38,751 nucleotides of DNA from a phage. Below the pieces are notes generated by a model. The model was not told the origin of the DNA. It worked only from the letters and a program-made list of their open reading frames with translations, and did not search any database. Location: the sequence record PZ465525.1; one strand, 5' to 3'. Below are positions 3,070-4,400 of the stretch, piece by piece. Made by a program: the position numbers and the translations under genes. Every line of letters begins with the position of its first letter. Positions within the stretch are counted from its first letter, which is position 1.

Positions 3070-3092
3070 TAATACGACTCACTATAGGGAGA
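3070..3092 (+). promoter_or_regulatory. Phage RNAP class III promoter (phi10)
   Basis: Exact consensus TAATACGACTCACTATAGGGAGA upstream of the capsid gene. Confidence 0.95.
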
Positions 3093-3156
3093 AGGTAACC
3101 CGCCGACTCCCTGTAATCCAACTTTGAAGTTAACTTTGATAGAAGGAGAATGAACA

Positions 3157-4194
3157 ATGGCTAACATGCAAGGCGGTCAACAACTGGGCACTAACCAAGG
3201 CAAGGGTGCTAGCAACGCTAGTGACAAACTCGCGCTGTTCTTGAAGGTATTCGGCGGCGAAGTCCTGACTGCGTTCGCTCGCACCTCTGTGACCACTTCT
3301 CGTCACATGATGCGCTCCATTTCAAGCGGTAAGTCCGCTCAGTTCCCTGTTCTGGGTCGAACCAATGCGGCCTATTTGGCACCCGGCGCGAACCTCGATG
3401 ACATCCGTAAGGATATTCCGCATACCGAGAAGACCATTTCAATTGATGGCCTACTGACTGCGGACGTTCTGATTTATGACATCGAAGACGCAATGAACCA
3501 CTATGATGTTCGCTCAGAGTACACCGCACAACTGGGTGAGTCTCTGGCGATGGCTGCTGACGGCGCTGTACTGGCTGAAATCGCCGGTCTGTGCAACCTG
3601 CCGGAAGCTGCCAATGAGAACATCGCTGGTCTTGGCAAGGCAACCATTCTGGAAACCTCTAAGCCGAAGGGCGCGCTGTCAACCCCTGCGGCAATCGGAA
3701 CCGAAGTCATTGAGCTGCTGGCCCGTGCCCGTGCTGCTCTGACCAAGAACTACGTTCCGGCTTCCGACCGTGTGTTCTTCTGTGACCCTGACACCTACTC
3801 TGCGATTCTGTCTTCGCTGATGCCGAATGCTGCGAACTACGCTGCAATCATCGACCCTGAGCGTGGCTCTATCCGCAACGTAATGGGCTTTGAGGTCGTT
3901 GAGGTTCCGCACCTGACCTCTGGTGGTGCTGGCGATAGCCGTGAGAAGCTGGATACCAACCAGAAGCACCAGTTCCCTGCTACCGTTCATGGTAACGCCA
4001 AGGTTGCCAAGAGCAACGTTATCGGCCTGTTCATGCACCGCTCTGCGGTAGGTACTGTCAAGCTGAAAGATTTGGCTCTGGAACGCGCTCGCCGTGCTAA
4101 CTTCCAAGCTGACCAAATCATCGCTAAGTACGCTATGGGCCACGGTGGTCTGCGACCGGAAGCTGCTGGTGCCATCGTTTTCAAGGCGGGGTAA
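3157..4194 (+). CDS. 10A: gp10A major capsid protein
   Basis: 345-aa ORF, strongly similar to T7 gp10A along its length (recalled, roughly 85% identity); strong RBS GAAGGAG. Confidence 0.97.
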   Translation: MANMQGGQQLGTNQGKGASNASDKLALFLKVFGGEVLTAFARTSVTTSRHMMRSISSGKSAQFPVLGRTNAAYLAPGANLDDIRKDIPHTEKTISIDGLLTADVLIYDIEDAMNHYDVRSEYTAQLGESLAMAADGAVLAEIAGLCNLPEAANENIAGLGKATILETSKPKGALSTPAAIGTEVIELLARARAALTKNYVPASDRVFFCDPDTYSAILSSLMPNAANYAAIIDPERGSIRNVMGFEVVEVPHLTSGGAGDSREKLDTNQKHQFPATVHGNAKVAKSNVIGLFMHRSAVGTVKLKDLALERARRANFQADQIIAKYAMGHGGLRPEAAGAIVFKAG

Positions 4195-4352
4195 TGCTGG
4201 GAGTGACCTCAACGGTCACTGCTAGTACCGAGGAGGTGAGTGTTACTTCAACAGAAGAAACCTTAACGCCAGCGCAGAAGGCCGCACGAACACGCGCTGC
4301 TAACAAAGCCCGAAAGGAAGCTGAGTTGGCTGATGCCACCGCTGAGCAATAA
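4194..4352 (+). other. 10B: Gene 10B extension: -1 frame continuation of the capsid ORF (minor capsid protein 10B by programmed frameshift)
   Basis: The -1 frame is open from just before the 10A stop to TAA 4350-4352 and encodes ...EETLTPAQKAARTRAANKARKEAELADATAEQ, near-identical to the T7 10B tail; GTTTTC slippery run at 4177-4182. Confidence 0.75.
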
Positions 4353-4400
4353 CTAGCATAACCCCTTGGGGCCTCTAAACGGGTCTTGAGGGGTTTTTTC
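4353..4400 (+). terminator. T-phi late terminator for phage RNAP
   Basis: CTAGCATAACCCCTTGGGGCCTCTAAACGGGTCTTGAGGGGTTTTTTC, a GC-rich hairpin plus U-run matching the T7 T-phi sequence (recalled). Confidence 0.93.

Follow-up and report, generated by a model that had tools for sequence, protein, structure and literature searches.

The question raised by this locus is whether the out-of-frame reading frame that follows the major capsid gene is translated as the tail of a minor capsid protein, and whether the shift can operate at a slip site whose first base differs from that of T7. The DNA analysed here (the window: record PZ465525.1, 38,751 nucleotides) is a Teseptimavirus genome. Its nearest relatives are the Aeromonas phages vB_AroA_KFSA9, avDM11-UST and PZL-Ah1, Stenotrophomonas phage IME15 and Escherichia phage Ebrios (~95-97% nucleotide identity; ~96-97% for KFSA9, IME15, Ebrios and PZL-Ah1), avDM11-UST being the closest whole genome. 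The position of gene 10, close to the left end, suggests that the window is a complete genome of ~38.7 kb in an order permuted relative to T7. Thirteen matches to the T7 RNA polymerase promoter consensus were found between positions 2069 and 37826, all on the + strand, for a chance expectation of 0; four of them are exact 23-mers (2069, 3070, 7437, 14725).

Gene 10A occupies positions 3157 to 4194 of the + strand and encodes a major capsid protein of 345 amino acids (36.4 kDa). It is driven by a phi10-type T7 RNA polymerase promoter, TAATACGACTCACTATAGGGAGA (3070-3092, + strand), an exact match to the consensus at a place equivalent to that of promoter phi10 in the T7 record. The Shine-Dalgarno sequence AAGGAG (3143-3148, + strand) is read directly 8 nt upstream of the ATG at 3157. 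Gene 10 is 81.6% identical between the window and T7. The protein is homologous to T7 gp10A, as indicated by Pfam family PF21703 (Gp10A-like, E 8.5e-103) and by the PDB structures of T7 10A (2xvr/3j7v, E 1.4e-180), to which residues 1-343 align. The T7 capsid structures solved so far contain the 345-residue 10A only.

The 10A frame closes its 345-codon ORF with ATC GTT TTC AAG GCG GGG TAA (ATC at 4174-4176, TAA at 4192-4194), exactly as the first-pass annotation had read it. The slippery run GTTTTC (4177-4182), which it had described as kept, occupies codon positions identical to those of T7, and comparison of the sequences confirms the difference it had noted in the preceding base, C here (4176) and G in T7. 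The shift site is thus C GUU UUC (4176-4182, + strand; codons Val341-Phe342), three codons before the 10A TAA, as compared with G GUU UUC in T7. The 52 open codons of the -1 frame were likewise recovered as an ORF from ATG 4194 to TAA 4350-4352, whose ATG overlaps the 10A stop as TAATG; the -1 frame is actually open from position 4128 on, 21 codons ahead of the 10A stop. Read from the slip site, the 10B extension (4182-4352, + strand) consists of 56 sense codons, from CAA 4182-4184 to CAA 4347-4349 followed by TAA, and its translation is QGGVMLGVTSTVTASTEEVSVTSTEETLTPAQKAARTRAANKARKEAELADATAEQ. The predicted 10B therefore has 342 + 56 = 398 residues and a mass of 41.9 kDa, against 36.4 kDa for 10A, and is equal in length to the T7 10B CDS.

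The near-identity of this tail to that of T7 10B, claimed at first pass, amounts to 49 of 56 residues from the slip site, or 46 of 52 counted from the Met. The extension matches PHROG 12582 ('head protein') with an E value of 1.8e-28, and the tail has no Pfam match. It does reach the terminator: the hairpin of Tphi, the T7 RNA polymerase terminator, begins 8 nt past the -1 stop. A terminator scan places Tphi at 4360-4399 of the + strand (hairpin 4360-4395, followed by a U-run), with 100% identity to T7 and to 17 of 17 T7-group relatives. The +1 frame after the slip site closes at 10 codons. In the + strand ORFs of at least 100 amino acids of the window, in-frame U_UUC occurs 31 times, and the 10A site alone is followed by at least 50 open codons in the -1 frame.

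These features were compared across 86 loci, comprising 80 relatives from IMG/VR, five from GenBank and the window itself. An in-frame slip motif was present 0-6 codons upstream of the 10A stop in all 86 loci. The -1 frame was open for 38-96 codons in 85 of them, the exception being locus L079, and the +1 frame closed within 2-17 codons in every case. GTTTTC stood at the slip position in 80 loci, preceded by G in 71, by C in 6 (all in the clade of the window, hereafter the C clade) and by A in 3. The G of the T7 prototype, absent from the window, is therefore a base that varies among relatives keeping the extension, and the A-variants retain it too. The remaining loci are five T3-like ones with C CCA AAG and one (L078) with G GTA AAG. 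Pattern scans of IMG/VR yielded, as true capsid loci, only IME15 (C) and one A-variant, with no additional C-variants; the other matches were due to chance and lacked gp10 homology.

The census also showed that the slip site turns over. The Berlinvirus-like loci L074, L079 and L082 (about 1620-1640) carry G GTT TTC AAA AAG, so that in these three G loci a Lys-type motif, AAA AAG, stands directly behind the Phe-type site; the tail of L079 is a natural truncation, cut short by a stop 16 codons beyond that of 10A. In the T3-like loci (L021-L026), C CCA AAG is accompanied by a Big_2 tail. KP32-like Klebsiella relatives (L028 and about 40 similar ones) have a 96-residue -1 extension after GGTTTTC, containing …TVAIAGDSLKVTLDGL…FKLVVTN, which shows no relation to the T7 tail and no significant hit in Pfam.

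We then considered whether the extension is conserved as a coding sequence. Among related loci, the tail motif LTPAQKAARTRAANKA is retained while third codon positions vary, and the motif LTP[AQ]QKAAxTRAxNKA is kept in 42 loci through 27 distinct nucleotide versions. Within the 16-codon block of this motif, the minimum numbers of changes are 35 at third, 7 at first and 6 at second positions. As the block was chosen by the motif itself, this is not an unbiased dN/dS and the codon-position bias is supportive rather than independent evidence. As far as the sequences tell, the comparison shows that the peptide is kept while the nucleotides drift. Between the window and T7, the extension gives pN 0.056 and pS 0.160. 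In 17 T7-group sequences, every length difference in it is divisible by three (-3, +3, +6, -21). The five distinct sequences of the C clade, among which there are insertions of 6 and 3 nt and a deletion of 3 nt, all retain the open frame. Furthermore, 33 of the 86 loci contain no ATG in the entire extension although the tail motif is preserved, and the tail is reachable there from gene 10 only, not as a separate gene. In the records of T7, 13a, BA14 and Kvp1, the tail is annotated as a 10B tail or as part of a joined CDS.

The initial proposal that a frameshifted minor capsid protein is made is thereby supported by comparative evidence, namely the homology, the slip position, the coding-type conservation, the loci devoid of ATG and the products identified in T7 and Kvp1. 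We consider it probable that the locus represents the gene 10A/10B programmed -1 ribosomal frameshift of T7-group phages. In this scheme, late transcripts would start at the phi10 promoter and end at Tphi, and most ribosomes would read 10A through to the TAA at 4192-4194. A minority would slip by -1 at Val341-Phe342 (GUU UUC, 4177-4182), where tRNA-Phe would re-pair from UUC to UUU, and would continue with CAA GGC GGG GUA AUG until the TAA at 4350-4352. The product would be a minor capsid protein of 398 amino acids combining the 10A shell domain with a 56-residue tail, itself predicted to consist of a Ser/Thr/Glu-rich linker followed by the basic stretch LTPAQKAARTRAANKARKEAEL. While the anatomy of the site, the homology and the coding-type conservation of the -1 frame are direct observations, we infer from them that the shift occurs in this phage, at what rate and with what contribution of the 3′ RNA, and that the product is incorporated into the capsid. 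This is an ordinary and well-known feature, with a small variant at one base of the slip site.

The C at the first position of the heptamer follows from the coding sequence: residue 340 is Ile (ATC) here versus Val (GTG) in T7, and no Ile codon ends in G. T7 gene 10 has been classed as an X_XXY_YYZ intermediate, with G_GU as X_XX (PMC5009743). From anticodon rules, the slip would leave the P-site tRNA-Val opposite CGU, where it would pair at the wobble position alone, versus two of three positions with the GGU of T7. The C thus removes part of the P-site re-pairing of T7, so that the site would act more like a U_UUC tetramer, aided by the 3′ RNA context. In E. coli, U_UUC ranks second among tetramers in its tendency to shift, given a stimulator, and tetramer-type sites are ~10-fold weaker than the best heptamers (PMC4066793). 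The efficiency of the shift in the C clade may be lower than in T7; judged from its sequence, the phage of the window probably still shifts, at a lower rate than T7. The clade offers a natural test of the importance of the first base of the T7 heptamer.

The loss of the G required for T7-type P-site re-pairing leads to a different reading, in which the extension of the C clade would no longer be translated meaningfully and would persist through nucleotide-level constraint (terminator context, stability of the 3′ mRNA) or recent recombination. The distribution of synonymous changes fits it. Third-position identity between the window and T7 is 57% in codons 1-100 of 10A, 59% in the first 93 codons of gene 11 and 77% in codons 281-342 of 10A; it rises to 88% in the -1 reading of the extension, and the segment between the -1 stop and the end of the Tphi hairpin is 100% identical at all positions. 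When the C clade is compared with the remaining T7-group sequences, the extension diverges by 0.179 at third positions, less than any 56-codon window of 10A (minimum 0.232, median 0.434). The suppressed synonymous divergence spans about 4000-4396. This island suggests that the nucleic acid itself is under constraint, at the RNA level, or that the 3′ module was recently exchanged or recombined, and because of it nucleotide conservation alone is no proof of translation. However, the frame is intact in the five distinct C-clade sequences despite their in-frame indels, the pN/pS ratio of the extension is below 1, the A-variants keep the extension as well, and U_UUC alone is able to shift when a stimulator is provided (PMC4066793). 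We therefore regard the persistence of the extension as an untranslated relic as improbable, and favor its translation by frameshifting.

Folding of the RNA 3′ of the slip site revealed a candidate structure at 4188-4249 (+ strand), made of a hairpin (4199-4223) and an outer helix (4188-4197/4240-4249) that begins 5 nt past the slip site. The segment 4183-4230, with the core GUGACC-UCAAC-GGUCAC, folds with -22 kcal/mol (z -3.98), and the whole helix/hairpin at 4188-4249 folds better than shuffled sequences (z -2.7 to -4.0). In an RNAalifold analysis of 17 relatives, 98.9% of cells were paired, a value that the shuffle control did not discriminate; the eight variable pairs were all one-sided changes to or from wobble, and no compensatory covariation was found in the 4188-4249 structure across these relatives. 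The search of Rfam gave no family match. A candidate 3′ hairpin is compatible with these data. The RNAalifold consensus structure was rejected: in it the slip site is itself paired to bases further downstream, an implausible arrangement for a stimulator.

A CCCC sequence in Tphi is reported to affect frameshifting of T7 gene 10 at long range, an effect that is unexplained (PMC5009743). In the window the CCCC is found inside Tphi at 4362-4365, ~180 nt from the slip site. Its pairing with a G-run near the slip site was unsupported, the G-runs being located at shifting offsets or absent among relatives. It is conceivable, though we would rather bet against it, that the C and A variants reveal a T7-type capsid frameshifting that has no need for P-site re-pairing, where slippage of the single tRNA-Phe would be driven by a long RNA element spanning the extension to Tphi. 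Such an element would fit with the synonymous conservation of the extension, the strongest in the gene 10 region, and, if real, would give a handle on the long-range effect of the CCCC. The synonymously conserved region from about 4000 to Tphi is the one to dissect for the long-range stimulator of T7 gene 10.

The TAATG overlap raises the possibility that the 52-codon ORF starting at ATG 4194 is a small protein of its own, translated by termination-reinitiation. Both the overlap and the ATG are invariant within the T7 group, and G-rich runs can serve as weak Shine-Dalgarno sequences for starts in the -1 frame (PMC4066793). Moreover, PHROG 12582 is a family of 52 residues, and the tail is annotated as a separate CDS of 52-54 amino acids in KFSA9 (L001, 1338-1496), IME15 (L002, 1338-1502), Ebrios (L003, 1338-1496) and PZL-Ah1 (L101, 1338-1496). 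These entries, labelled 'minor capsid protein' or 'head protein', are equivalent to 4194-4352 of the window, with a start ATG overlapping the 10A stop. PHROG 12582 (52 positions) appears to have been built from such separate entries, and the separate-CDS annotation is probably a propagated artefact. Against reinitiation, no ATG at all is available in the extension of the 33 loci mentioned above, the ATG at 4194 is preceded by no strong Shine-Dalgarno sequence (AAGG at 4183-4186 only, as compared with AAGGAG for gene 10 and AAGGAGG for gene 11), and the tail is fused to the capsid protein in T7 (PMC1635266) and Kvp1 (PMC2579914), consistent with the 10B tail given in the T7, 13a, BA14 and Kvp1 records. 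A free-standing tail protein is in our opinion very unlikely.

A 10B protein could also arise by slippage mainly at G GGG UAA (4188-4194, + strand), a possible secondary shift site suggested by the sequence, where the P-site tRNA-Gly would slip at the 10A stop. No stop interrupts the -1 frame over 4188-4194, the re-pairing of tRNA-Gly one base back would be cognate with a stop codon in the A site, and the protein would contain ...FKAGVMLG... in place of ...FQGGVMLG.... This motif is nevertheless absent from T7 (GTG GAG TAA) as well as from IME15 and PZL-Ah1 (GGG GAG TAA), so that it is unconserved even within the clade, the conserved element being GTTTTC instead. In addition, UAA followed by U is generally seen as an efficient stop context. 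We give little credence to this site as the main point of slippage. Transcriptional slippage was set aside as implausible, since the polymerase is not known to slip on as few as four T.

The main value of the analysis is for annotation: a joined 10B CDS should replace the free-standing tail gene. Because display on T7 uses the 10B tail as the fusion point, relatives in which 10B is functional could be adapted to phage display as T7 has been. The PDB matches to the translation of 4182-4349 are not natural homologues; they correspond to read-through tails of T7-derived pET vectors and to an engineered tag. The vector tails appear as C-terminal AANKARKEAELAAATAEQ in many unrelated proteins, and entry 8rcx has an acidic variant, PEEASVTSTEETLTPAQEAAETEAANKAEEEAELEAETAEQ, near its N-terminus that looks like an engineered tag from T7 10B.

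Among known systems, the closest is the 10A/10B -1 frameshift of T7 at G GUU UUC (Condron, Atkins and Gesteland 1991, as cited in PMC5009743 and PMC1635266), which produces 10B in about 10% of translations (PMC1635266, PMC5009743); bioRxiv 2025.10.02.679949 contains nothing on the T7 capsid sites. The window and T7 share a homologous capsid gene of 345 amino acids, the slip codons Val341-Phe342, a product of 398 amino acids, the TAATG overlap and an identical Tphi with its CCCC ~180 nt downstream, in addition to the 49 identical tail residues. They differ by the first base of the heptamer (G in T7, C in the window), by seven tail residues and by the codons between slip site and stop, AAA GTG GAG in T7 versus AAG GCG GGG in the window, the latter creating the G GGG UAA motif. 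The frameshift product gp10B of Kluyvera phage Kvp1 (Berlinvirus) has been proven by mass spectrometry (MS/MS; PMC2579914). Kvp1 likewise has a Phe-type GTTTTC slip site a few codons before the 10A stop, and the LTPQQKAARTRAANKARKEAEL motif closes its tail, ahead of a T7-type terminator. This phage of another genus differs in having G GTT TTC as its site and an unrelated linker part in its tail.

In T3 and phiYeO3-12, a -1 frameshift near the end of a homologous capsid gene also yields a minor capsid protein (PMC5009743, PMC2579914). There the shift occurs at Lys codons, in the motif C CCA AAG, and in place of the basic tail of T7 the T3-like loci encode a Big_2 Ig-like domain (Pfam E 1.3e-12). 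The U_UUC tetramer sites of E. coli and insertion sequences resemble the site of the window in that the A-site tRNA-Phe alone re-pairs cognately (UUC to UUU), P-site re-pairing being poor (PMC4066793). They were measured with nearby IS3/IS911 stimulators (PMC4066793), whereas the nearby stimulator in the window is a candidate only, and in T7 it is a distant element in the terminator that has been implicated (PMC5009743).
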